Origin: Faecalimonas sp.
GTDB lineage: Bacteria; Bacillota; Clostridia; Lachnospirales; Lachnospiraceae
Assembly: GCA_045593805.1 (NCBI GenBank)
Contig: JAZNXJ010000009.1
Span: 5,759 to 69,758 of the forward strand
Direction: 5' to 3'
DNA: 64,000 nt
Both the position numbers and the translations under genes were made by a program. The notes below the pieces were generated by a model. That model saw only the letters and a program-made list of their open reading frames with translations. It made no database searches and was not told the origin of the DNA. This document shows, one piece after another, positions 2,349-62,601 of the stretch (position 1 is its first letter; each line of letters begins with the position of its first letter).

Positions 2349-4406
2349 CTATGGTGTAGGTCTGTTAGTTCCACCAGTGGAACCACCGTTGCCATTATCT
2401 GTGTCGGTGTTCCCCCCATCTTCCTCGTCTGGCTGCTGTGTTCCTGGGCCTGGCCCTATACTAACCTTAATGGTAATGGTAGAACCTTTTTCCACAGATT
2501 CACCTGCCTGTTCAACAGAAACAACAAACCCTTCATTGTACGTAGAACTCAAAGTTTCTTTATACTCAATCGTAAAATCACCCTTCAAGTTTTCAATCAT
2601 ACCCACAACTTGATCGGCCATCTTTCCCGCAAATTTATCGTTTGTAGGAATCTTTATCAATTCTTTCACTGCCACATAGTATTTTACAATTGTTCCTTTG
2701 TCCACTTCTTCATCTGCTTCAATTTCTTGTTTGAAAACAGTGCCATCCAGATACTCCTCATTGACCTCTTCTACAACTTCTCCAGTTAATCCCGCTGTTT
2801 TTAAAAGTTCTTCTGCCTGTTCTTTTGTTTTACCTTCAAGGTCTGGTACAAAGGTCTTACCCACACCTGTACTAATATAGATTGTAATTCTTGCTTTATA
2901 GTTTCTGCCCTCACCGGCTTCAGGATCAGTTCTAGTCGCCAAATCTTTCTTAACAGTCATGTGTTCTTCTGTTTTAACCTTGATGTTTTTTTCCTCGAAT
3001 CCTGCATCCACTAAAGCCTTAATTGCTTCTTCTTCTGTCTTGTTACTAACGTCCGGAATCTCAATCTCTTTTAATCCGGTACTTACATATACCTGCAGTT
3101 TTGCACCTTCCGGAAGTTCTGTTCCTTTTGCTGTTAATTGCTTGAAAATATAACCTTTTTCATATTTTAGTGCTTCCTCTTGACGAGCAACAACCAAAGT
3201 AACTCCAAGCTCCTTCAATGCTTCTTCTGCCTGCTCTACTGTCATTCCGACAACATCCGGAATACCCTTGTCTTCTCCTTGCTGAACAATAGGATCATTG
3301 TCACTAAAGATGCCGGCCAAGTTACCAATCACCCATGCCATAACTCCGACAAACAAAACAGATGCTACAATCAGCAAGATTTTCATAACCTTTGACATCT
3401 TAGGGTCAATATCTGAATTTTTCTTGCCAGCTCTGCGTTCTTTTTCGTCATCGTCATAATAATCATCATAATCGTCATAATCAGAATCAAAAGCCGCTTC
3501 ACCTTGGATACGTGCCATTTCTTCTGGTGTAACAATCACTGTATTCGTTGGACTGGTAAGTGGGGCTATTTTCACGAAATCACCATCCGGCTCTTGGATG
3601 GAGCGTTTCAAATCACGTGCCAGTGCCGAAACATTTGCATAACGTCTGTCCGCACTCTTCTGTGTACATTTCATGATAATCTGCTCTAAACTATATGGAA
3701 TCTCAGGTACAAGTTCTGATGGTGGAACAATATCCTCTTGCAAATGCTTGAGCGCAATAGAAACTGTTGAATCTCCGTCAAATGGCAATTCACCTGTAAT
3801 CATCTCATACATGGTAATACCAAGAGAATAGATATCACTCTTTGCATTACTAAATCCGCCTCTTGCCTGTTCCGGAGATGTGTAATGTACAGAGCCCATA
3901 ACATTGGTACTAATTGTGTTTGATGATGTCGCCTTTGCAATACCAAAATCTGTAACCTTTACTTTGCCTTCTTTGGAAATAATAATATTCTGCGGTTTAA
4001 TATCACGATGAATAATATTATTGCTATGAGCTGCATCCATAGCTGAACTCACCTGCATAGTAATACCGATTACTTCCTTGGCTGTCAATCTTCCTTTTTT
4101 CTGAATGTAATCTTTCAGTGTAATGCCTTCCACTAATTCCATCACTATGTAGTAAAGCCCGCGGTCTTCTGCTACATCATAAACATTTACAATATTCGCA
4201 TGAGTAAGTCCTGCAGCAGACTGCGCCTCTGACCAAAACTTCTTTACAAAATTCTCATCTGCGCTAAATTCTTTCTTTAGAACCTTTACAGCAACGTATC
4301 GATTCAATACACGGTCAATTGCTTTATATACATTCGCCATGCCACCTGAACCAATTTTATCTATAATCTCGTATCTGCTACCTAATAAAACGCCTTCTTT
4401 AATCAT
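2349..4406 (-). CDS. prkC: Ser/Thr protein kinase with PASTA repeats
   Basis: 685 aa. Hanks kinase motifs (GSGGMANVYKA, HRDIKPQN, DFG), one TM helix, then repeated PASTA-like modules. Confidence 0.95.
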   Translation of the reverse strand: MIKEGVLLGSRYEIIDKIGSGGMANVYKAIDRVLNRYVAVKVLKKEFSADENFVKKFWSEAQSAAGLTHANIVNVYDVAEDRGLYYIVMELVEGITLKDYIQKKGRLTAKEVIGITMQVSSAMDAAHSNNIIHRDIKPQNIIISKEGKVKVTDFGIAKATSSNTISTNVMGSVHYTSPEQARGGFSNAKSDIYSLGITMYEMITGELPFDGDSTVSIALKHLQEDIVPPSELVPEIPYSLEQIIMKCTQKSADRRYANVSALARDLKRSIQEPDGDFVKIAPLTSPTNTVIVTPEEMARIQGEAAFDSDYDDYDDYYDDDEKERRAGKKNSDIDPKMSKVMKILLIVASVLFVGVMAWVIGNLAGIFSDNDPIVQQGEDKGIPDVVGMTVEQAEEALKELGVTLVVARQEEALKYEKGYIFKQLTAKGTELPEGAKLQVYVSTGLKEIEIPDVSNKTEEEAIKALVDAGFEEKNIKVKTEEHMTVKKDLATRTDPEAGEGRNYKARITIYISTGVGKTFVPDLEGKTKEQAEELLKTAGLTGEVVEEVNEEYLDGTVFKQEIEADEEVDKGTIVKYYVAVKELIKIPTNDKFAGKMADQVVGMIENLKGDFTIEYKETLSSTYNEGFVVSVEQAGESVEKGSTITIKVSIGPGPGTQQPDEEDGGNTDTDNGNGGSTGGTNRPTP

Positions 4407-5222: not shown

Positions 5223-6191
5223 TTACCGTGTTACTTCACTCTTTATCCTATCCATACACATATGAACACCCATACAAAGCCTACTGCTCTCTTCATATTG
5301 TTCTAACATTTTTCCCTGAATAAAGTCAGCAAAGGCAGAAGCCTCGTAACTCATAAGAACATCCTTCTTTTCTTCTATGTATAGTGCCCTTTTCTCCCCG
5401 TTCACAATTAAATAAGCACCCATATATAGTCCGACTCGTTCAATGACAACTGAACCCTTATCTCCAATGATTTCACACGGGGTTACGCTCTGACCTATCT
5501 TACTATAAGACAAAACTGCCGGAAACGTCTCATACTCAAAAATGGCTCCTCCACTTCCATCAGCTCCGTTATACAAATACGTTGCGGTTGCCTTAATATC
5601 CTTAGGTACTCCAAGCAAATCAACAGCTGCATATACGCAATAGATACCTAAATCCATAAGTGTTCCAGCCGCCAGAGACATGTCAAAAATATTCACATGT
5701 TCCCCACGCATGAATGCATCATATCTACTGGAAAGTTGACAATAATCTATTTTTGCCATCACGATATTACCAATCATACCAAGAGCTTCCTTGATACGTT
5801 CGCTACTCTTTCCAAAAACAGGAATAATTGCTTCCATGTATATTAACCCATGCTCATCTGCTAACCGTTTTAAACGCTTATATCCTTCTAAAGATGTTGC
5901 AATTGGTTTTTCACAGATAACGTGCTTTCCCCCTCGCAGCAATTGCTCGCTCTGCCACTCATGGCAACTATTTGGAGAAGCTATATACACTGCTTCAATT
6001 TCCGTATCGTTAACTAAGTCGGTAATATCTGTGTATACCTTAGATACGCCTTGCTTATCCGCATATTCTCTTCCCGTCTCTACTTGACGTGAATATATAG
6101 CTTCTAATTGAAGTTTTCCACTCAATCTTGCTCCCTCTATAAAAGTGTCTACAATCTTGCCGCGCCCTATTACTGCATATTTTATCATCAC
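5223..6191 (-). CDS. Gfo/Idh/MocA family oxidoreductase
   Basis: 322 aa. N-terminal Rossmann YAVIGRGKI and EKP motif. Start may be the second Met. Confidence 0.8.
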   Translation of the reverse strand: MMIKYAVIGRGKIVDTFIEGARLSGKLQLEAIYSRQVETGREYADKQGVSKVYTDITDLVNDTEIEAVYIASPNSCHEWQSEQLLRGGKHVICEKPIATSLEGYKRLKRLADEHGLIYMEAIIPVFGKSSERIKEALGMIGNIVMAKIDYCQLSSRYDAFMRGEHVNIFDMSLAAGTLMDLGIYCVYAAVDLLGVPKDIKATATYLYNGADGSGGAIFEYETFPAVLSYSKIGQSVTPCEIIGDKGSVVIERVGLYMGAYLIVNGEKRALYIEEKKDVLMSYEASAFADFIQGKMLEQYEESSRLCMGVHMCMDRIKSEVTR

Positions 6192-6216
6192 TTCACCTCA
6201 ATTATTGAATTATGCT

Positions 6217-7254
6217 CTATTTCCTTTCAACATAACGTCGTCTCAACTGTCCACAGGCTCCGTCTATATCCGAACCCATTTCTCTTCTTATCGTGACATT
6301 AACCCCGCTTTTTTCAATTTTATTTTTAAAATCTTCCGCACTTCTCCTGCTTGGTTTCTGAAAATCTCTCTCTTTTATCGGATTTACCGGAATCAAATTC
6401 AAATGACAATTCCTAGGTTGAAGGATGCCGATTAACTCGCTTGCATCTTCATCCCTATCATTTACTCCTTGCACAAGGCTATATTCGAAGGTGATTCTTC
6501 GTCCTGTTTTTTCGAAATAATAGTCGCATGCTTCCAGCACCTCTGAGAGCTCATATTTATTTGCAATTGGCATCAATGTCTTACGTTTTTCCTGTGTGGA
6601 ACCATGTAATGACAACGCTAATGTAATTTGAAAGCGCTCCTCTGCCAGAAGCTTCATGTTTGGTACAATGCCACAGGTGGACACAGTAATGTTTCTCTGG
6701 CTGATATTGAGTCCATTTTCATCGGTTACCAAGCGGATAAATCGTACAAAATTTTCATAGTTATCAAGCGGTTCACCGGTTCCCATAATCACTATATTGG
6801 AAACACGTTCTCCTGATATTTTCTGAATCTGATAAATCTGTCCAAGCATCTCTGACGAAAGCAGATTTCTCTCCAAACCGCCAATGGTAGATGCACAGAA
6901 TTTACATCCCATTCTGCAACCAACCTGTGAAGAAATGCATACAGAGTTGCCGTGTTTATAGCGCATTAACACACTTTCCACCACATTTCCATCTTCCAAT
7001 TGAAACAGAAACTTATTGGTTCCATCCATCTCTGAAACCTGTCGTTCCAACATTTTCACACTTGGAATGCGGTATGCGGCATCTAGTTTCTCCCGCAAGC
7101 CTTTAGAAAGATTGGTCATTTCATCAAAGGAATCTGCAAGCTTTGTATGTAGCCATTCATATACCTGTTTGGCACGAAAGGCTTTCTCACCTATGCTCTC
7201 CATTTCTATTTTCAGTTCGTCTAACGATAAAGATAAAATGTCTTTTTTATCCAT
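6217..7254 (-). CDS. rlmN: 23S rRNA/tRNA (adenine-C2)-methyltransferase, radical SAM
   Basis: 345 aa. CRMGCKFC radical-SAM motif and conserved C-terminal GxDIDAACGQL. Confidence 0.95.
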   Translation of the reverse strand: MDKKDILSLSLDELKIEMESIGEKAFRAKQVYEWLHTKLADSFDEMTNLSKGLREKLDAAYRIPSVKMLERQVSEMDGTNKFLFQLEDGNVVESVLMRYKHGNSVCISSQVGCRMGCKFCASTIGGLERNLLSSEMLGQIYQIQKISGERVSNIVIMGTGEPLDNYENFVRFIRLVTDENGLNISQRNITVSTCGIVPNMKLLAEERFQITLALSLHGSTQEKRKTLMPIANKYELSEVLEACDYYFEKTGRRITFEYSLVQGVNDRDEDASELIGILQPRNCHLNLIPVNPIKERDFQKPSRRSAEDFKNKIEKSGVNVTIRREMGSDIDGACGQLRRRYVERK

Positions 7255-8542
7255 GTTTCACCTTCTTAAATTTCGCAATAAAAAATCCGTCACTTTCATG
7301 CACGCCCGGAAGGAGTTGTTGACTGAAAACCAGTTCAAAATCTGAGTTTTCAGAAAGAAACCACTCTACATTTCCCATATTCTCTGCCTCATGAATGGTA
7401 CAGGTACTGTAAACCAAAGTGCCGCCCGATTTTACATACTGCTTAACGATTGACAAAATCTCCCGCTGCAGTTTCACAAGTTCTCCCTGTGTCAACTCTG
7501 TCATCTTATATTTCAAATCAGTCTTTTTACCAAGAACGCCAAGTCCGGAGCATGGCAAATCTGCAATTACAATATCTGCCTTTTCTACTGCATTTTCATC
7601 TAATATTGTCGCATCCCAGCGTACCGCTTCGATATTCTTCATACCGGAGCGCATAATATTTTCTTGAATCAAGTTCACTTTATAATCGGTTAAATCTCTG
7701 GCTTCCACATGTCCTGTCCCCTGTAAAAGTTCCGCCATGTGAAGTGCCTTTCCACCTGGTGCTGCACAGACATCGATGACAACATCTCCCTCTTTAGGTT
7801 CTGCCATATGAGACACCAGCATAGAACTGATATCCTGTACATGGAAAGCCCCTTGTTGAAATGCTTTTAAGTCCGCAAGGTAATCGTAGCCCGATATCTG
7901 AAGCGCATATGGTAGATATGGATGTTCTTCCGCCTTTACACCTTCAGCCTTCAGTTCCTCCATCAGTTGTTCCTTGGACATTTGATTCAGATTGCAACGA
8001 ATGGTAGTCGGTTGTTCCTTCTGAAAATCTGCTAACATTGTCTCAACTGTTTCTCTATCATACCTTGACAGCCACTGTTCTAAAATCCACTCTGGCATGG
8101 AATATTTCACATGCAAATATTCTATTAGATTCGTCTCTTCCGGATATGTAATTGTTTCCAGGTTTCGCTCGATATTGCGAAGTACCCCGTTTACAAAACC
8201 TTTTAAAGTAGAAAATCCCTTCTTGGTCGCCAGCTTTACTGCTTCATTGCATGCCGCCGAGTTTGGAACACTGTCCATATATTTTAGTTGATAAACCGCA
8301 CTTCTTAAAATATTGCGGATGACCGGCTTCATCTTATTTACCTTGACTTTTGAAAACTGATTGATGATATAATCCAACTCAATCATATGCTCCAAAGTTC
8401 CTTCCGTCACCCTTGTGATAAATGCGCGCTCTTTCTTATCCAGATATTGATATTTATTTAAAACATTGCGAAGCGCAATGTGGCTATATTCCCCGTCGCG
8501 CGTCACTTCCAATAATATTCCAAGCACTAGTTCCCTAGTCAT
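7247..8542 (-). CDS. rsmB: 16S rRNA (cytosine967-C5)-methyltransferase
   Basis: 431 aa. NusB-like N-terminus, DVCAAPGGK SAM motif and DLPCSGLG motif. Confidence 0.93.
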   Translation of the reverse strand: MTRELVLGILLEVTRDGEYSHIALRNVLNKYQYLDKKERAFITRVTEGTLEHMIELDYIINQFSKVKVNKMKPVIRNILRSAVYQLKYMDSVPNSAACNEAVKLATKKGFSTLKGFVNGVLRNIERNLETITYPEETNLIEYLHVKYSMPEWILEQWLSRYDRETVETMLADFQKEQPTTIRCNLNQMSKEQLMEELKAEGVKAEEHPYLPYALQISGYDYLADLKAFQQGAFHVQDISSMLVSHMAEPKEGDVVIDVCAAPGGKALHMAELLQGTGHVEARDLTDYKVNLIQENIMRSGMKNIEAVRWDATILDENAVEKADIVIADLPCSGLGVLGKKTDLKYKMTELTQGELVKLQREILSIVKQYVKSGGTLVYSTCTIHEAENMGNVEWFLSENSDFELVFSQQLLPGVHESDGFFIAKFKKVKHG

Positions 8543-9242
8543 TCCGTCTTCTTCCTCCTGTTAAAAGGATGATTCGAAGGAGCTGTAAAATCGCAGTTGC
8601 TGCACTCGCAACATAAGTAAGAGCTGCTGCATTTAATACCTTTCTCGCCGCCACAATTTCTTCTCCATGCATCATGCCGCTATCTGCAATCATACGAATG
8701 GCACGGTTAGATGCGTTAAATTCTACAGGCAGTGTAATAAGCTGAAATAAAACTGCCCCTGAAAATGCAATAATTCCTAAATTGATAAACAAACTAGAGG
8801 ACTCACTGGTAAACAATAAGCCGATTAAAATCAACGGCCATGCAATTTTTGCGCCGAAATTTGCAATCGGCACCAATGTACTTCTAAGTTTTAACGGCGC
8901 ATATCCCTTTGCATGCTGAATGGCATGTCCGCATTCGTGGGTTGCAACGCCTACGGCTGCCACGGATGTACTTCCATAAACCGTATCCGAAAGACGAAGC
9001 ACCTTGTTTCTCGGGTCGTAATGGTCCGTCAGATTTCCTGCAATACGCTCGATTCTTACATCGTAAATTCCTGCTCTATGGAGCACCTGCTCTGCTGCCT
9101 CTGCACCAGTAATCCCCCTGCTGTTCCTCACATTAGAAAATCTCGCAAAGGTAGTTTTTACCTTTCCAGATGCAAGTAAACTTAATGCTACTCCAATTAA
9201 TACTAAAAAATATGTTGGATCAAAATAAAATGGATAAAACAT
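8535..9242 (-). CDS. membrane zinc metallopeptidase (Zn_peptidase_2-like)
   Basis: 235 aa. HECGH(A)IQH HExxH motif and TM segments. Confidence 0.8.
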   Translation of the reverse strand: MFYPFYFDPTYFLVLIGVALSLLASGKVKTTFARFSNVRNSRGITGAEAAEQVLHRAGIYDVRIERIAGNLTDHYDPRNKVLRLSDTVYGSTSVAAVGVATHECGHAIQHAKGYAPLKLRSTLVPIANFGAKIAWPLILIGLLFTSESSSLFINLGIIAFSGAVLFQLITLPVEFNASNRAIRMIADSGMMHGEEIVAARKVLNAAALTYVASAATAILQLLRIILLTGGRRRND

Positions 9243-54886: not shown

Positions 54887-54926
54887 AAAAAAGCACCTCG
54901 AGTTTTCTCGAAGTGCTTTTATTTCT
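54887..54926 (-). terminator. bidirectional intrinsic terminator after tRNA-Arg
   Basis: AAAAGCACCTCGA-loop-TCGAAGTGCTTTT with T-runs on both strands. Confidence 0.7.
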
Positions 54927-54929
54927 TAA

Positions 54930-55003
54930 CGTGGGCGAGAAGATTCGAACTCCCGACCTTTTGGTCCGTAGCCAAACGCTCTATCCAGCTGAGCTACGCC
55001 CAC
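54930..55003 (-). tRNA. tRNA-Arg (anticodon ACG)
   Basis: Cloverleaf folds by eye. Anticodon loop CTACGGA. Identical to 62437-62510. Confidence 0.9.
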
Positions 55004-55006
55004 ATA

Positions 55007-55039
55007 TAAAAGAAACATTACCATGTAATGTTTCTTTTA
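55007..55039. repeat. 14-bp-stem perfect hairpin in the tRNA spacer
   Basis: TAAAAGAAACATTA-ccatg-TAATGTTTCTTTTA. Absent from the equivalent spacer at 62511-62514. Confidence 0.85.
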
Positions 55040-55040
55040 A

Positions 55041-55061
55041 TGCCGCAAACCGGAATCGAAC
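55041..55061 (-). repeat. attL core: orphan 3'-terminal 21 nt of tRNA-Leu
   Basis: TGCCGCAAACCGGAATCGAAC is identical to 62515-62535 inside the intact tRNA-Leu. Confidence 0.88.
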
Positions 55062-55235: not shown

Positions 55236-56105
55236 TTACTTTTTAACTACCGGTATCCAAATTTCACTACGATAATCGGAACTACCCATATCACCTTCGG
55301 TATAAGCTTCAATGTCCATTTCATAAGTTGGCTGATAACCGGATATCGGAAAAAATTCTGAAGTTATTTTGTGCCACATATCCTGCATTGCTTTTGGTAT
55401 TGCTCCTTTGCACTCGAAAACTGCCCAAGTACTTGCAGGAATGGTATTTCTGCGGAATCCTTTTGGAACAACAGCATTTTTATTATATACCGCTCCAATA
55501 GAATAGTCGAAAGTCTTTGCACCGTCACCTATATTGCCATAACAAACACCCAAAATGAATGTCCTGTCGGTTGTGTTTTCTAGTAAAGTTTTCACGGTAC
55601 CATCATTATGCGATTTTGTCCAAAAATCAGGAATGCTTTTTGTATTTACATCATTTTCAATGCTATGTGCTTCAACCTTCTCGATGATATCAAAAGCTTC
55701 CTTTTCAACAATCTTATAGTCCATCATAGAACCTCCATTCAATGTGATTTTTACTGAAAGACGAGAAAACGATTTGAGCTTTGTACCATTTTTCTTTGCT
55801 TCAGACGGTGTTATTCCGTGAAATTTAGAAAAAGCTCTTGTAAAGCTCTCTGGACTTTCATAACCATACTTGAATGCAATATCTATTACTTTTATGTCAG
55901 ATGCATTCAGCTCATTGCCGGCAAGAGTAAGCCTTCTATTGCGAATATACTCCCCAAGAGGGATTTCGCACAGAATACCAAAAATTCTTTGAAAATAGAA
56001 ACTTGAACAAGCAGCTTCTTCAGCTACGTTGTCATAATTGATTTCTTCGGTCAAATGCTCCTCTATATAGTTGATAGCATTTTGTATTCCGGTAATCCAA
56101 TCCAT
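55236..56105 (-). CDS. AraC-family regulator with GyrI-like effector domain
   Basis: 289 aa. N-terminal dual HTH (SSFYFQRIF, GYESPESFTRAFSKFHGITPSE) and a C-terminal GyrI-like domain. Confidence 0.88.
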   Translation of the reverse strand: MDWITGIQNAINYIEEHLTEEINYDNVAEEAACSSFYFQRIFGILCEIPLGEYIRNRRLTLAGNELNASDIKVIDIAFKYGYESPESFTRAFSKFHGITPSEAKKNGTKLKSFSRLSVKITLNGGSMMDYKIVEKEAFDIIEKVEAHSIENDVNTKSIPDFWTKSHNDGTVKTLLENTTDRTFILGVCYGNIGDGAKTFDYSIGAVYNKNAVVPKGFRRNTIPASTWAVFECKGAIPKAMQDMWHKITSEFFPISGYQPTYEMDIEAYTEGDMGSSDYRSEIWIPVVKK

Positions 56106-56447
56106 TGTTACTCTCCTTTCGTGTAATTACATTATAAAACAAAAATAATAATTTACCTGATTTCTTATGTCCACATATGCAATATATCAATTATGTTTTA
56201 ATGGTTTTATATGTAATCATAACATAACTTCACTTACACATAAACAACATAAAAGATATGACTCATTTTCACCCCTATTGTAGCACAAACATATCACATT
56301 ATTAGTTACTCCACAACACACAAATAAATTTTTATTTTTTCCAAAACTGCCGATTTTGGAACGATTTTAAGTCAAAAAAAGTGGTAACAAATTAACTTGC
56401 ATTTGTTACCACAAAAATATTAACAAACGAAAGGAGATTTTGTTACA

Positions 56448-56846
56448 ATGGAAAATCCAAAGACAATTTCAACCAACGAAAAACTGCCTAGACCCTACAA
56501 AGACAAAAGCAATAAAGAATTACTAGATATTCTTGCCACGAAAGGACTCTCTACCGCCAATGCCCTATATGCTCTGATAGAATCAAATGCACGCAAGGAT
56601 AAACAAATCGCCAACCTTATGCACCGAGTATCTGTCCTTGAAGAAAAAGCGGCAAAGAAAATTGGAAGGAAACGTCAATCATTCTCTCTCAACGGAAAGG
56701 AGTTGACGGATGATGATATTATCTATTATGTGGATAATGACTATATGACGATATCCGAATTAGAGAAGGATGTCGGAGCCAAAAAGAATCAACTCCGCAA
56801 CAGATACAACAGGCGAAAAAAACAGTTCTCCATCTCTAAAATATAA
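56448..56846 (+). CDS. hypothetical protein (basic, possible DNA-binding)
   Basis: 132-aa ORF with AAAGGAG RBS. No confident motif. Confidence 0.5.
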   Translation: MENPKTISTNEKLPRPYKDKSNKELLDILATKGLSTANALYALIESNARKDKQIANLMHRVSVLEEKAAKKIGRKRQSFSLNGKELTDDDIIYYVDNDYMTISELEKDVGAKKNQLRNRYNRRKKQFSISKI

Positions 56847-56906: not shown

Positions 56907-56935
56907 TTGACATTATTTTCGTTTTCTGATATAGT
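56907..56935 (+). promoter_or_regulatory. near-consensus sigma-A promoter of the XRE gene
   Basis: TTGACA - 17 nt - TATAGT, 24 nt upstream of the start codon. Confidence 0.55.
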
Positions 56936-56958: not shown

Positions 56959-57483
56959 ATGAACAATTTAAAACTTATTAGAGAAATTTACGGTGCTACG
57001 CAAGATGAAATTTCTACTGCAATCAATGTAAATCGTGCTACGATTTCCATCTGGGAAAACAGTGAGGATAAGAAGGCTTCTCATGCCATTTTAGAAAAAA
57101 TGTCTCTTTTTTATGGTATTGGTCCTGAATTCTTTTATGAACAGCCATTAGATGATACCGCACGAGAAATGCTTAGAGATAATGCAAAGCGCCAAAAAGA
57201 ATTAGAAGCAAAAAAAGATTCTTCGCATAGCAAAGCAGAAGAATTACGTCAATTATTATCAAATATAAGCTTTGACGATGCCATCACTCAATATATGCTT
57301 GCAATGAAACTTTTCCTTACTACACTTGATGAGGGTCCTCTCTCCAAACTAGAGACCGCATTAAAAATTAATCAAAAAATGGGAAAGCGATTGGAAACAG
57401 AAATCGAACTCAAAAAATCTGAACAAGCAAATAATGAAGAATCCTTATCTGATTTGCTCGACAGTTTAACCGTTGATAATTGA
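56959..57483 (+). CDS. XRE-family helix-turn-helix regulator
   Basis: 174 aa. N-terminal HTH GATQDEISTAINVNRATISIWEN. Confidence 0.85.
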   Translation: MNNLKLIREIYGATQDEISTAINVNRATISIWENSEDKKASHAILEKMSLFYGIGPEFFYEQPLDDTAREMLRDNAKRQKELEAKKDSSHSKAEELRQLLSNISFDDAITQYMLAMKLFLTTLDEGPLSKLETALKINQKMGKRLETEIELKKSEQANNEESLSDLLDSLTVDN

Positions 57484-57742
57484 CCATATCAAAAGAAAAA
57501 GACCTTGATAACATTATGTATTAATCAAGACCTTTTCAAAATCTGGTATATCTTCAAATGAGACCACCAAACCCTACACACGTTTGATTTTACCTCATTT
57601 GAATTTATACGTCAACAGTTTTTGGCTACCAATGTTTGGAAAGGAGATGCGCATTAGTCAAAACAAGCTCTTTTGATATGGTTTTATAAATATATGTAAC
57701 TATAAATTGATTTCAGTGCGTTTTGCACACGAGGTGAAAATT

Positions 57743-57952
57743 ATGACAAAATATTATATTAACAAAACAAAAGACAATAATCAGAAGAATGAAGTACATA
57801 AATCCAGTTGTTTCTGGTTGAGTCTCGCTTCTAAAACTGAATATTTAGGTGAATTTAATAATGCTATTGATGCAGTTGCTTATGCCAAGCGAATCGGCTA
57901 CCCTTCTGCTGATGGCTGTAAAACTTGTTCACCAGAAGCACATACTGCATAA
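57743..57952 (+). CDS. small Cys/His (putative zinc-binding) protein
   Basis: 69 aa from ATG after GAGGTG. HKSSC ... GY ... CKTCSPEAH pattern. Stop lies 15 nt before the next gene. Confidence 0.6.
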   Translation: MTKYYINKTKDNNQKNEVHKSSCFWLSLASKTEYLGEFNNAIDAVAYAKRIGYPSADGCKTCSPEAHTA

Positions 57953-57967
57953 GAGGGAGGTTATATT

Positions 57968-59005
57968 ATGAAAGCAAAATATACTCCTATTTTGAGATGG
58001 AAAACAGGTGAACGAAATTGTCTTGAAAATTTGGCCGCTGATATTTCAAACAATATTATGCCATTTATCGAAGTTGCTTTACCAGCACCTGCCCAAGACG
58101 AAGATGCCACCAAGAAAAAAATAGAAAAACTCATTACTACCTTTAATCTCAGTTGGGAAAGAAAGCCGTTTTATTTATACTTGTCAGAAGATTGGTACAG
58201 CGAAGCAGATAGCCCTTCTCAGATTCCTGAAATATATAGTGATTTTTTCAAAAGAGTGAACCATCCAAAAGCAATCCCTGCTTTTGATATTACAGATATG
58301 TTAAACATCTGTGCAGTTCCTCATCTTACAACTGATAATGGTATATGTCTGCGTATAAGCGGGTCTAATTTTGAAGCAATACGTGATACCTTAAACGGTT
58401 ATGTTCATAATTCTTGGATTATCCCTGAAACCACAGACCTCTTGCTTGATTTAAGATATGTTACTGATGATACTTATCCCGCAAAATCAGCTTTGGCTGC
58501 TGTAGTTGCTGACATTCCAAACATTGCCACTTATCGACGCATCATTATTGCAAGCTGCTCGTTTCCTAAAGACGTTTCAAATCTTTTGCCCGATGTAGTA
58601 AATGAGTTTACACGTCACGAAGTTGCTATCCATGCAAAAGCCTTGGAATTACAGAAAACTTACGGATTTAATTACGTTTATGCCGATTATGGTCCTATGA
58701 ACTTAAATGACACAGCATTTGTACTTGGAATGATTCCAAATTTTAAAATCAAATATACCACTTGTGATAAATACCTAATTGTAAGAGGAATCTCTCTAAA
58801 AAAAGGTGGACTTGACTTAAACAAAGTAGCTTCTTGTTGCATGCAGTTAGTAAGCCATCCACAATACTCCGGTATGAATTTTTCACATGGCGATAGAATC
58901 ATCTCAGATACTGCCAATGGTATTAATATCAAAAGTGGAAATCTTACAAGTTGGGTAGGTTACAGTTTTAACCATCACATAACGTTAATTGTTTCTTGGC
59001 TATAA
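57968..59005 (+). CDS. Beta_protein (PF14350) / sce7725-like family protein
   Basis: 345 aa. N-terminal YTPILRWKTGERNCLENL matches my recollection of the Beta-protein signature. GAGGGAGG RBS. Confidence 0.6.
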   Translation: MKAKYTPILRWKTGERNCLENLAADISNNIMPFIEVALPAPAQDEDATKKKIEKLITTFNLSWERKPFYLYLSEDWYSEADSPSQIPEIYSDFFKRVNHPKAIPAFDITDMLNICAVPHLTTDNGICLRISGSNFEAIRDTLNGYVHNSWIIPETTDLLLDLRYVTDDTYPAKSALAAVVADIPNIATYRRIIIASCSFPKDVSNLLPDVVNEFTRHEVAIHAKALELQKTYGFNYVYADYGPMNLNDTAFVLGMIPNFKIKYTTCDKYLIVRGISLKKGGLDLNKVASCCMQLVSHPQYSGMNFSHGDRIISDTANGINIKSGNLTSWVGYSFNHHITLIVSWL

Positions 59006-59032
59006 ACCAATATTGGAGGAATTAGAATATGT

Positions 59033-59593
59033 CTAATCCCTCCAATTTTTTCTACTTTTTATTGTTTCACGTGTGAATTCCTTTACCTGTTTTAAAGAAA
59101 TATTATCCATTACCATTTGACGCAATACCCGTCTATTTTTTCCCGATATTCCTTTAATTCCCGCATTTTTCAATAATGAAACCACTTCTTCTTTCCAGAG
59201 TAACTCTAACAACGCTGAAGCATCAATATTTTTATTTACTTTTGCAGATCGCTTCTTTCTAATCTTGCATCCATCCATGTTTTCACTTGCTATATAAATA
59301 CCCCAATGTTCGGGAACATGAGTCTCAATTTTATCCTTAAATTTTTCTCCTACAACAATTGATATCGTATCAAATGTTCTATCGTAGCATTTCTGTTGCA
59401 AGGAAAGTCTTTCTAGAGTATCTGCATCACTCTTTATTTCATATCCACATAGTCTACCGTTAGCAACCGCTACATCTACTCTCGCTTCTCCATCACACAC
59501 AGTCATCTCTTCAATTATTCTATAGTCGTGCTGAGCATTAATTCTATTTAATTCATCAATTAGAGTTCCTCTAATATCACAATCTTTTAGCAT
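59033..59593 (-). CDS. PD-(D/E)xK nuclease-fold protein, sce7726-like
   Basis: 186 aa. DIRGTL..., GEARVDVAV and GYEIKSDADTLERL (D...ExK) motifs. Confidence 0.6.
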   Translation of the reverse strand: MLKDCDIRGTLIDELNRINAQHDYRIIEEMTVCDGEARVDVAVANGRLCGYEIKSDADTLERLSLQQKCYDRTFDTISIVVGEKFKDKIETHVPEHWGIYIASENMDGCKIRKKRSAKVNKNIDASALLELLWKEEVVSLLKNAGIKGISGKNRRVLRQMVMDNISLKQVKEFTRETIKSRKNWRD

Positions 59594-59830
59594 TGCGCAC
59601 CCCCAGCACTTATTATGATAAGAATTATACCACGTTTTGCTTTTTCACTCAATTCCTAAAATATAAAAATACTCACATTTTGAAAAAAATATTTATGTCA
59701 CTATCCGTATGACTCCCATACAGGTCACCATGCCTCTTCTTGCAAAAAAGTGTACTGTTCTCACTCCCAGCTTTCCTAGCGGTTTACCATCTAATGCAAC
59801 AATCTCTTCAATTCTATAAATTCATATTTG

Positions 59831-60196
59831 TCACTCCACCATTATTTTTTTCTGCTCTTTCTTGCTAAATTTTAAAAAAACTGTCTCATATGCTAAATCT
59901 ATCATATTTAATAATTCATCATCTGGAAAGTCATCTAAATATATTGTATTCCAATATGGTTGCTGAACAGGTGGGCAATGATACCCTCTAACAACTTTTT
60001 GAGGATATGCCATTCTATAAAATTGTCCTGCATCGTTGGTGCACTTCAAAGTAATTTTATAATCATATTCATATGGATACAGTTGAGCAAATATTTTGCC
60101 ATTTAACTTATAACATATCGGAACATCACCAAACGGAAATTCTTCCGTAACTTTATGTTTATTTTTGCAATATGCCTTTATTTCTTCAATCTTCAT
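59831..60196 (-). CDS. MmcQ/YjbR family protein
   Basis: 121 aa. IKAYCKNKHKVTEEFPFGDVPICYKLNGKIFAQL motif. Confidence 0.8.
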   Translation of the reverse strand: MKIEEIKAYCKNKHKVTEEFPFGDVPICYKLNGKIFAQLYPYEYDYKITLKCTNDAGQFYRMAYPQKVVRGYHCPPVQQPYWNTIYLDDFPDDELLNMIDLAYETVFLKFSKKEQKKIMVE

Positions 60197-60593
60197 AATT
60201 CACCTGTTTGATAATGGTTTTATAGAAAGGGTTATCCGATAGCATTTTTCTAATTGAACCAAACTTGCACTCGCATAATTTCTCACATAAACCTAACACT
60301 TCATCATTTACATAATCATTAACTTCATATCTTTTAAAACCATCTTCTAAATGGAATAAAAAAACAACTTTATCCTCTGTCAAATATTCATTCCAATATT
60401 CCACTTCCAAATGTTTTTTTATAAATTCTTCCCACAACTCAGCCTTTGACTCTGGAAAAGACACCTTATAATTATTTCCATCATTCCGAATTAAAAAGCC
60501 CTGTTGCTTTAAACTAAAAATACTATTATCTATTCCCATAACATATGTATGATACATTTTATATAACCTCCACAAATTTGAATTTTCTTTCAC
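60186..60593 (-). CDS. hypothetical protein
   Basis: 135-aa ORF overlapping the YjbR start by 11 nt. The true start may be an internal Met. Confidence 0.45.
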   Translation of the reverse strand: MKENSNLWRLYKMYHTYVMGIDNSIFSLKQQGFLIRNDGNNYKVSFPESKAELWEEFIKKHLEVEYWNEYLTEDKVVFLFHLEDGFKRYEVNDYVNDEVLGLCEKLCECKFGSIRKMLSDNPFYKTIIKQVNYED

Positions 60594-61067: not shown

Positions 61068-62282
61068 ATGGAAAAACAGAATATCGACCAACAGATTCTC
61101 ATTAATGACTTGCTTTCTTCCATAGGTGATGGTACACTCACCCCATCAGAGATTTCGGAAAAAGTACTGTATATGATGAAGAAGCAGGAAATTGAAAAGA
61201 AATATCATGACTTAATCAAACAAAGAAAGGATGGCAGACAATACTACATTTACATCAACCGCAAGCAGTACAACGCTACTACTTATGACGGATTGATAAA
61301 GATTCTTTTTGACTTGGAGAATAGCAAAGTAAAATCAAGTCTGACGGATATATTTCCGGAATGGATGTTATGGCGTAGAGATTATACTTCCGTCAGTAGC
61401 AAGACATTAAAAGAAGATACGTTCAATTGGAATAAGTATCTGAAAGACAAGAAAGTTTCTACAACGCCTTTATTAGATTTGGCACCTAAAGACTTCGTGC
61501 AAGAGTTTCGGCTATGGACAAAAGACCGACAAATGACACGAAAACAATTTAACAATGTCAGAAGTCTTATCAACAATCTGTATGCATACGCTATTGAAAA
61601 TGAAATCGTAGCGTATAACCCTATAAAAGAAATAAGCAGCAGACAATTCACTTTTAAACCAGTCAACAATTCGGATGACGTCTTTACGATTGAAGAACGA
61701 GAAATCTTATTGAAGCACCTAGCCGATAATAACGATATGTATTCACTTGCAATTCAATTAGACTTTCATCTTGTGGCACGTATAGGCGAATTGCTTTCAC
61801 TTCGTTGGAGTGATATTAAAGGAAATACCATTCACATTCAAGGACAACTGTTGACCGACTTCCACATGAATGATGATTTGACCTTCAGTTCAAAAGAACA
61901 TGTAAATGTAGACCACATCAAAGGGAACACAGAACAAGGTTTCCGTTATCAGCATTTAACCCAAGAGGCATTACGGATATTAGACGAGATAAGAAAACAA
62001 AATCCTGATGGTGAGTTTATTCTGATGAAAGATGGCAAGCAACTGACGTATGACACGTTCAATAGACGATTAAAACAATACTGCAATGAATGTGGTATTA
62101 AAGCATATTCAAGCCATAAAATAAGGTTTTGCACCGCTTCCTTACTCTATGTCAAAGGAATGCCGATTACAGACTTACAGAAACTACTCGGACATACAAA
62201 GGTTGCTATGACATGGCACTATTTAAGGAATGTAGCACCTACTCAAAATACGGCTGATATTATGGAAACTGCATTAGGATAA
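61068..62282 (+). CDS. int: tyrosine-type site-specific integrase
   Basis: 404 aa. ARIGELLSLRWSDI (Arg), HKIRF (HxxR) and LLGHTKVAMTWHY (His..Tyr) motifs. Confidence 0.92.
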   Translation: MEKQNIDQQILINDLLSSIGDGTLTPSEISEKVLYMMKKQEIEKKYHDLIKQRKDGRQYYIYINRKQYNATTYDGLIKILFDLENSKVKSSLTDIFPEWMLWRRDYTSVSSKTLKEDTFNWNKYLKDKKVSTTPLLDLAPKDFVQEFRLWTKDRQMTRKQFNNVRSLINNLYAYAIENEIVAYNPIKEISSRQFTFKPVNNSDDVFTIEEREILLKHLADNNDMYSLAIQLDFHLVARIGELLSLRWSDIKGNTIHIQGQLLTDFHMNDDLTFSSKEHVNVDHIKGNTEQGFRYQHLTQEALRILDEIRKQNPDGEFILMKDGKQLTYDTFNRRLKQYCNECGIKAYSSHKIRFCTASLLYVKGMPITDLQKLLGHTKVAMTWHYLRNVAPTQNTADIMETALG

Positions 62283-62406: not shown

Positions 62407-62436
62407 CAAACCCTTGATTTTCAGGGCTTTTATCAA

Positions 62437-62510
62437 CGTGGGCGAGAAGATTCGAACTCCCGACCTTTTGGTCCGTAGCCAAACGCTCTATCCAGCTGAG
62501 CTACGCCCAC
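62437..62510 (-). tRNA. tRNA-Arg (anticodon ACG), element-borne copy
   Basis: Identical to 54930-55003. Separated from tRNA-Leu by only 4 nt. Confidence 0.9.
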
Positions 62511-62514
62511 ATAA

Positions 62515-62601
62515 TGCCGCAAACCGGAATCGAACCGGTACGGGAGTATAAGTCCCGCAGGATTTTAAGTCCTGTGCGTCTGCCAGTTCCGCCACTGCGG
62601 C
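62515..62601 (-). tRNA. tRNA-Leu (anticodon UAA)
   Basis: Long variable arm and anticodon loop CTTAAAA. The 3'-terminal 21 nt form the attR core. Confidence 0.9.

Follow-up and report, generated by a model that had tools for sequence, protein, structure and literature searches.

A probable gop-less variant of the P4 gop-beta-cII module as cargo of a tRNA-integrated island in Faecalimonas sp.

Background

A compact group of three genes occupies positions 57743 to 59593 of a 64,000-nucleotide stretch of DNA from Faecalimonas sp. (assembly GCA_045593805.1, contig JAZNXJ010000009.1), hereafter called the window. It encodes a small Cys/His protein, a protein of the Beta family and, in convergent orientation, a protein with nuclease-like motifs. 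A preliminary description made from the sequence alone had proposed that they form an undescribed defence system. Do they represent such a system, or a form of one already known, and which of the three genes make up its conserved unit? From the comparisons reported here, they appear to be a variant of the published gop-beta-cII system of phage P4 rather than an undescribed system. The conserved unit would be the pair Beta-cII, the small gene being an accessory.

Homology of the module to P4 gop-beta-cII

The three open reading frames (ORFs), the gaps of 15 and 27 nucleotides (nt) between them and the motifs quoted in the preliminary description were all confirmed in the sequence:

57743-57952, + strand: small putative zinc protein, 69 residues, soluble (phrog_4298)
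57968-59005, + strand: Beta protein, 345 residues (PF14350 at 2.2e-43)
59033-59593, - strand: cII / sce7726 family protein, 186 residues (NF033832 at 6.2e-49)

Searches with hidden Markov models (HMMs) bore out the assignment of the 345-residue protein to family Beta_protein (PF14350, matched over residues 5-339) and of the 186-residue protein to NCBIfam sce7726_fam, for which it scored 166 bits against a cut-off of 70. Beta also matched phrog_9159 at 2e-47. In the PADLOC check, Beta was hit by the PD-Lambda-2_C models PDLC03983 (7.1e-38) and PDLC03984 (2.4e-37) and by 'beta' (7.3e-8), and the 186-residue protein by 'cll' (2e-41); gop, PD-Lambda-2_A and PD-Lambda-2_B gave no match. In PADLOC, the names 'gop', 'beta' and 'cll' stand for the proteins of P4. 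Direct comparison with BLASTP gave 22% identity to P4 beta over the full length (E 1e-6) and 30% identity to residues 1-183 of P4 cII (E 2e-25). Homologues of the 186-residue protein, referred to below as cII, carry the precomputed family PF26915 Phage_P4_cII. In RefSeq, the P4 proteins themselves are annotated as 'sce7726 family protein' (cII) and 'beta family protein' (beta).

In NC_001609, the P4 record, gop (133 residues) ends 2 nt ahead of beta (355 residues), and the convergent cII (264 residues) lies across a 27-nt gap with an annotated terminator. The cassette sits in the P4 defence hotspot, its genes are non-essential to P4 and, when cloned, it protects against lambda and P1; gop, described as a protein with two transmembrane (TM) segments, is toxic without beta (Rousset et al. 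2022, PMC9122126). According to a preprint (bioRxiv 10.1101/2023.04.06.535777), cell death through gop-beta-cII is set off by orf184, an accessory phage gene. The pair in the window had been thought to have no assigned function. It corresponds instead to the beta-cII of P4, that is to two thirds of an experimentally validated system, and its Beta also matches component C of PD-lambda-2. The premise of a pair without function is thus out of date, and the term 'undescribed defence system' was an overstatement.

The remaining third was not recovered in the island that carries the module. No island protein matched the PADLOC gop model, phmmer of gop against all island ORFs returned only noise (E>=0.45), and none of these ORFs was a plausible membrane protein.

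Conserved residues of Beta and cII

The motifs GEARVDVAV and GYEIKSD are present in the 186-residue protein. Two alignments reaching from Clostridia to the candidate phyla radiation (CPR) and P4 showed nine invariant cII residues: E29, R38, D40, E52, K54, S55, D58, R62 and Q66. An AlphaFold2 (AF2) model built from database homologues (predicted local distance difference test, pLDDT, 93.9) placed helices at 4-18 and 63-73 and strands at 25-32, 37-44, 48-54 and 76-81, an alpha-beta-beta-beta-alpha-beta core followed by a four-helix C-terminal domain. The model has the canonical PD-(D/E)xK layout, strand 2 holding D40 and strand 3 E52-x-K54, and the PD-(D/E)xK reading in the preliminary description is upheld. 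Foldseek returned weak matches, with SfsA at the top (E 1.8e-3, probability 0.98) together with AF1548, and AF2093, Cap4, Cas4 and RecE lower down. Published HHpred results relate P4 cII to MmcB-like (99.8% probability), NucS and DpnII-type PD-(D/E)xK families (Rousset et al. 2022, PMC9122126). The cII of the window can be considered a candidate effector nuclease with a predicted intact PD-(D/E)xK-type site.

Sixteen alignment columns, including E15, R129, D161, D240, S306 and H337, were invariant among 17 divergent members of the Beta family. Such a pattern seems to point to an enzyme more than to a passive antitoxin. Sequence searches of the PDB found no solved relatives of Beta or cII, and no published mechanistic work on PF14350/Beta, cII or sce7725 was found in the literature. 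Membership of Beta in sce7725, also suggested in the preliminary description, was not upheld: neither the window Beta nor 14 other Beta proteins, P4 beta included, matched sce7725 of NCBIfam at E<=0.1, the presence of this model in the library not having been independently confirmed.

Distribution and upstream partners of the Beta-cII pair

Loci collected from species-representative genomes with cII as seed had Beta immediately convergent in 12 of 13 cases. IMG/VR viral contigs collected with a Beta alignment held a convergent cII in 16 of 18, Beta being incomplete in the other two. Fifteen plasmid records were found with Beta as seed (Escherichia, Agrobacterium, Rhizobium, Sinorhizobium, Rhodococcus and others), most of them annotated as 'beta family protein' beside 'sce7726 family protein' with overlapping 3' ends. 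Besides the window island, mobile contexts included a Mu-like prophage, an Escherichia coli phage-plasmid and a Clostridium botulinum element with Mob_Pre, small terminase genes and Abi_2.

Upstream of Beta, the gene content was far less constant. Nothing was found there in several Clostridia, in the E. coli phage-plasmid pSTEC1024_3 and in Rhodococcus; gop is found in P4, a long XRE protein in Agrobacterium, and HigB with an Xre-peptidase in metagenome-assembled genomes (MAGs) of CPR, Dehalococcoidia and FCPU426, in which cII was also present. Among the IMG/VR contigs, the genes directly upstream encoded a multi-TM protein of 208 residues, possibly a gop analogue (L045, 3341-3967), an SNase-like nuclease of 180 residues (L056, 3328-3870) and an XRE protein with an ImmA-like peptidase (L052, 2823-3802). 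Since Beta and cII are kept while their upstream genes vary, the pair appears to be the conserved unit and the upstream genes appear interchangeable.

The MAG loci with HigB (L017 to L022, for instance L017 at 5770-9134) contain a complete PD-lambda-2 A/B/C set with a convergent cII/sce7726 directly after Beta, as scored by PADLOC (A 5e-31, B 1.8e-138, C 2e-50, cll 7e-29). In PD-lambda-2, A is HigB-like, B is an Xre-peptidase with toxicity of its own, and C, 'related to a P4 phage antitoxin' (PF14350), is required for defence and not for toxin neutralisation (Vassallo et al. 2022, PMC9519451). Judging from their gene content, these loci link PD-lambda-2 to P4 gop-beta-cII through a shared core. 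HigB with Xre-peptidase was also found without Beta.

It is worth noting that two groups of close cII homologues (67-75% identity) had other surroundings. In L031 to L033 (6001-8056) the convergent partner was a 473-residue protein without family match, and in L034 cII stood alone.

With representatives in Bacillota, Pseudomonadota, Actinomycetota, Spirochaetota, CPR and Chloroflexota and in their viruses, Beta-cII might be taken as a universal, self-sufficient two-gene immune core, in which Beta would be the sensor or controller and cII a PD-(D/E)xK nuclease, and to which interchangeable toxins or modulators would be added upstream. In this general form the proposal is tentative and, in our estimation, somewhat doubtful. 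If true, it would unify gop-beta-cII and PD-lambda-2 and would make phrog_4298, the family of the small protein, a new class of small modulators placed before defence cargo.

The small Cys/His protein

The gene directly upstream of Beta in the window encodes the motifs H19-x3-C23 and C59-x2-C62-x4-H67. Among 60 family members H19, C23 and C62 were invariant, and C59 and H67 were conserved in at least 90%. The protein matched phrog_4298 at 6.5e-17 over residues 1-68, and all its homologues start at the ATG of the window gene. Close homologues formed only ten clusters. With a profile the count rose to 916 (clustered at 50% identity), and a further search brought at least 1,415 (clustered at 90%). 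Nearly every member is a stand-alone protein of about 68-70 residues named 'hypothetical'.

No Pfam, NCBIfam or PADLOC family was matched, the Pfam scan having also been made with the 60 family members. The AF2 model (pLDDT 95.6) found no fold match in PDB or BFVD at E<=0.001; an excess of GIY-YIG domains among the BFVD matches was weak and non-significant (E 0.2-2) and was not relied on. The likeness to Ada-type zinc modules pointed out in the preliminary description hence found no counterpart at either the Pfam or the fold level. Scans of IMG/VR gave no confirmed match to the small protein, and the alignment of the divergent family was too variable for patterns. The possibility that the protein is a homologue of gop was rejected, as BLASTP against gop returned nothing and gop is a 2-TM protein.

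The preliminary description also placed the small protein with Beta as a plausible sensor or modifier, and an obligate three-component system can be built on this view, in which the nuclease would be the effector. Several features agree with it. The small gene and Beta are separated by 15 nt in the window and by 14 nt in the closest locus found (L002, an Acetatifactor MAG), each time with a strong ribosome-binding site (RBS); the small gene holds the position of gop in P4; and the residues of the putative zinc site are strongly conserved. A family member 59% identical to the window protein even lies directly before an Mrr-type nuclease and after an ATPase (L006, 5-1959; AAA_15/21, AriA/PtuA/GajA-like; the nuclease has 231 residues with Mrr_cat and a Zn-ribbon), an arrangement that may represent a defence pair of ATPase and nuclease enclosing the small gene.

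The distribution of the small gene speaks otherwise. It was absent from 12 of 12 other genome loci and 16 of 16 viral loci with Beta-cII (about 30 in all), and from L028, the relative whose cII is 70% identical to that of the window. The family itself was met in unrelated contexts: the lysogeny region of Streptococcus Javan prophages, a Vibrio inovirus, the neighbourhood of a LexA/ImuB cassette, and a run of small genes in Tenacibaculum. In L065 to L067, the same 68-residue member (4001-4207) follows a PIN_4 gene and is followed in turn by Prok-E2_A/Prok-JAB or by a 922-residue SIR2_2 protein, an arrangement that looks like a variable defence hotspot. Together with the lack of similarity to gop, these observations make an obligate three-component system distinctly unlikely. 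Because it is missing from the other Beta-cII loci examined and its family occurs in many unrelated contexts, we conclude from the comparison of loci that the small gene is probably an accessory recruited in this clade and not a defining component of Beta-cII.

Gene organization and predicted expression

A fourth gene, coding for an XRE-family regulator, precedes the small gene. It is listed here with the signals found around the module:

56907-56935, + strand: promoter-like site before the XRE gene (TTGACA-17-TATAGT with TG; 11 of 12 positions, the best of the scan; a consensus match only)
56959-57483, + strand: XRE-family helix-turn-helix (HTH) regulator, 174 residues (N-terminal HTH_3, PF01381 at 4.3e-5)
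57953-57960, + strand: RBS for Beta, GAGGGAGG, read from the sequence
59012-59046, both strands: hairpin with a stem of 15 base pairs (bp) in the convergent gap, from the terminator scan; it overlaps the 3' end of cII
59624-59652, - strand: promoter-like site before cII (TTGAGT-17-TATAAT with TG; 10 of 12 positions; a consensus match only)

The C-terminal part of the XRE protein is helical, about 110 residues long, and without peptidase domain. The first site listed is likely the promoter of the XRE/small-gene/Beta transcript. The promoter scan found no strong promoter between the XRE gene and the small gene, and no significant terminator hairpin was found 3' of XRE (z -0.87). Between the small gene and Beta, the TAA stop codon is followed by GAGGGAGG, seven bases and the ATG of Beta. 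In view of the promoter-like sites before XRE and cII and of the lack of a significant terminator after XRE, the XRE gene, the small gene and Beta likely form one transcription unit, with the cII transcript running towards it. The hairpin lies where the stop codons of Beta and cII are separated by 27 nt. Its fold energy was -16.4 kcal/mol on the + strand (z -4.5), with a U-run after it, and -22.2 kcal/mol on the - strand (z -6.0), as expected of a putative bidirectional terminator common to both genes.

In the preliminary description the three genes lay directly downstream of an XRE switch. The gene does lie upstream of the trio, but it is not simply the switch of the island, as it belongs to a conserved block of four genes running from the XRE start codon to the cII start codon. 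Alignment (blastn) with the Acetatifactor locus L002 gave a single block at 56959-59592 with 69.5% DNA identity, the edges of which coincide exactly with these two codons and outside which the flanking genes differ; XRE is thus co-conserved with the three downstream genes. With L028, which has Beta and cII only, the alignment was restricted to 57954-59530 (Beta and cII) at 65% DNA identity.

These comparisons bear on the idea that the module is a functionless remnant, a P4-type cassette that has lost its toxin gop. Such decay would fit the fact that the module contains neither a membrane ORF nor a homologue of gop, and the state of a metagenome copy of the Acetatifactor-type locus (L004), in which cII is split. 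It is hard to reconcile with the intact state of all ORFs, with the invariance of the catalytic-type residues, and with the persistence of four intact genes at 69.5% DNA identity in another genus-level genome. Moreover, Beta-cII without an upstream partner is common across phyla, which suggests that gop was not an ancestral requirement. We regard an inert remnant as very unlikely.

The split of cII in L004 (7297-7902) leaves two fragments beside an intact XRE gene, small gene and Beta; it may be an artefact of assembly, or a costly gene may have been inactivated. A further gene of the window, at 56448-56846 (+ strand), adjoins the conserved block upstream and has its own promoter-like site (56420-56449). 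It encodes a basic protein of 132 residues (pI 9.8) for which no family match was found and which may serve the island as a regulator or in excision.

The surrounding island

The island with the module as cargo measures about 7.5 kb. It is inserted at a tRNA-Leu/tRNA-Arg site, and its limits and integrase are as follows:

54922-55061, - strand: left boundary repeats, with a copy of tRNA-Arg(ACG), a hairpin spacer of 33 nt and a 24-nt repeat of the tRNA-Leu 3' end
61068-62282, + strand: tyrosine integrase of the island (PF00589 at 1.9e-21)
62429-62535, - strand: right boundary repeats, with the second copy of tRNA-Arg(ACG) abutting the 3' end of an intact tRNA-Leu(TAA)

The tRNA-Arg repeats (85 nt, 98% identity) are spaced by 7,507 nt and the tRNA-Leu repeats (24 nt, 100% identity) by 7,474 nt, and the hairpin spacer (55005-55037) was found in the left copy only. 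The GC content is 0.30-0.36 inside and 0.38-0.47 outside. The duplicated tRNA-Arg, the tRNA-Leu repeat and the integrase bear out the earlier view of the three genes as cargo of a tRNA-integrated island.

Other genes were observed in this island. A 289-residue protein with AraC-type HTH (55236-56105, - strand) matched phrog_30333, a phage-associated regulator family, over its full length (4e-83). Between cII and the integrase, a YjbR-family protein (121 residues, PF04237 at 5e-20) overlaps by 11 nt a 135-residue protein without family match (59831-60593, - strand), the two forming a further two-gene cargo unit.

Functional interpretation

The role of the module can be approached from its homologues, and the defence role put forward in the preliminary description is plausible on that basis. 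We consider it reasonably probable that the locus is a gop-less Beta-cII module of P4 type, likely acting in anti-phage defence of the abortive-infection kind. The functions of the individual genes are what we infer from homology, synteny, conservation of the pair, conservation of catalytic-type residues and mobile context, all of which were observed. In this scheme, the Beta-cII core of the clade would have acquired a dedicated XRE gene and a small zinc protein from a promiscuous accessory family of mobile elements. XRE may limit expression of the operon. Beta would act as controller or sensor, by analogy with P4, where it neutralises the gop toxin, and with PD-lambda-2, where it is required for defence and not for neutralisation. 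The cII nuclease would be the effector: as the module has no gop, HigB or Xre-peptidase, cII is the sole candidate for this role. The small zinc protein may be an add-on regulator or modulator and would not be obligate.

A number of points weigh against this interpretation. Defence by a Beta-cII pair devoid of gop would be an extrapolation. The known toxic component of P4 is gop and not cII, which makes of cII as effector a guess. No Foldseek match for the cII model reached E<=0.001. The name cII comes from a clear-plaque phenotype of P4, which relates to lysogeny. Three loci (L015, L031 and L034) have cII without Beta. Finally, the clone of the E. coli PD-lambda-2 system that gave protection had no more than 396 bp of flanking sequence (PMC9519451); such a flank leaves no room for a full cII, and Beta can hence act in defence without it.

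Another possible explanation is based on the biology of the mobile elements themselves. Beta-cII might be a cassette for lysogeny or maintenance control, or for addiction, with cII as a DNA-binding or DNA-processing factor and anti-phage effects as incidental. The pair is almost always found on prophages, satellites, plasmids and islands, often near repressor and integrase genes; its P4 relative owes the name cII to a lysogeny-related plaque phenotype; gop and beta behave as a toxin-antitoxin pair; and the C-terminal helical domain of cII, as modelled, could bind DNA. Such a housekeeping function fits poorly with what is known of the homologues, namely the location of the P4 cassette in a defence hotspot, the protection it confers against unrelated phages when cloned alone, its triggering by a phage protein, the non-essentiality of its genes in P4, and the requirement for a Beta-like protein in PD-lambda-2 defence. 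We hold it to be unlikely, and an anti-phage Beta-cII module is retained as the preferred interpretation.

This interpretation would matter in several respects. Annotation tools define gop-beta-cII and PD-lambda-2 by three genes each, and a Beta-cII pair is probably missed by them as incomplete. Rst_gop_beta_cll, as DefenseFinder names the P4 system, has been reported in Proteobacteria only; the Beta-cII pair is far more widespread than that. A version without toxin is also easier to study, both for the signal that Beta would respond to and for a possible role of cII as nuclease effector. The small zinc-protein family, for its part, is large, confidently folded and wholly unannotated.

Comparison with known systems

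At the level of single proteins, the cII of the window resembles PD-(D/E)xK proteins of MmcB-like, NucS and SfsA type in its predicted alpha-beta-beta-beta-alpha-beta core, where D falls in the second strand and ExK in the third. It differs from them in having no significant sequence match to any solved structure.

With the NCBIfam sce7725/sce7726 pair, which RefSeq annotates as neighbours in genomic islands, for example in Leptospira, the window shares a clear sce7726 member. The usual partner of sce7726 in RefSeq is, however, a 'beta family protein', and sce7725 may stand for another partner family or for a narrower one.

The resemblance to PD-lambda-2 lies in Beta, which scores best against the PD-Lambda-2_C models (7e-38), and in the presence of an XRE-family gene upstream of it. 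Unlike the window module, the E. coli system as cloned has no complete cII. The island proteins scanned included no match to PD-Lambda-2_A, for which true A proteins score 5e-31, and the XRE protein of the window, with its HTH only, did not match PD-Lambda-2_B. A relationship of this protein to the Xre-peptidase of PD-lambda-2 was considered and rejected, as comparison with a true B protein showed no similarity.

Five differences separate the module from P4 gop-beta-cII. The place of gop, a 2-TM protein of 133 residues, is taken by an unrelated soluble 69-residue protein of putative zinc type; cII is 186 residues long and is devoid of the C-terminal extension of about 80 residues seen in P4; an XRE regulator is added; the host is a low-GC bacterium of Clostridia type; and identity is low (22% for Beta, 30% for cII). 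The architecture of the two modules is nevertheless the same. Both combine a Beta of family PF14350 with a cII of family sce7726, in identical order and orientation, with a small gene directly before beta and cII convergent to it. In each, the convergent genes end 27 nt apart, with a terminator hairpin at the same place, and each module is cargo of an integrase-bearing mobile element.

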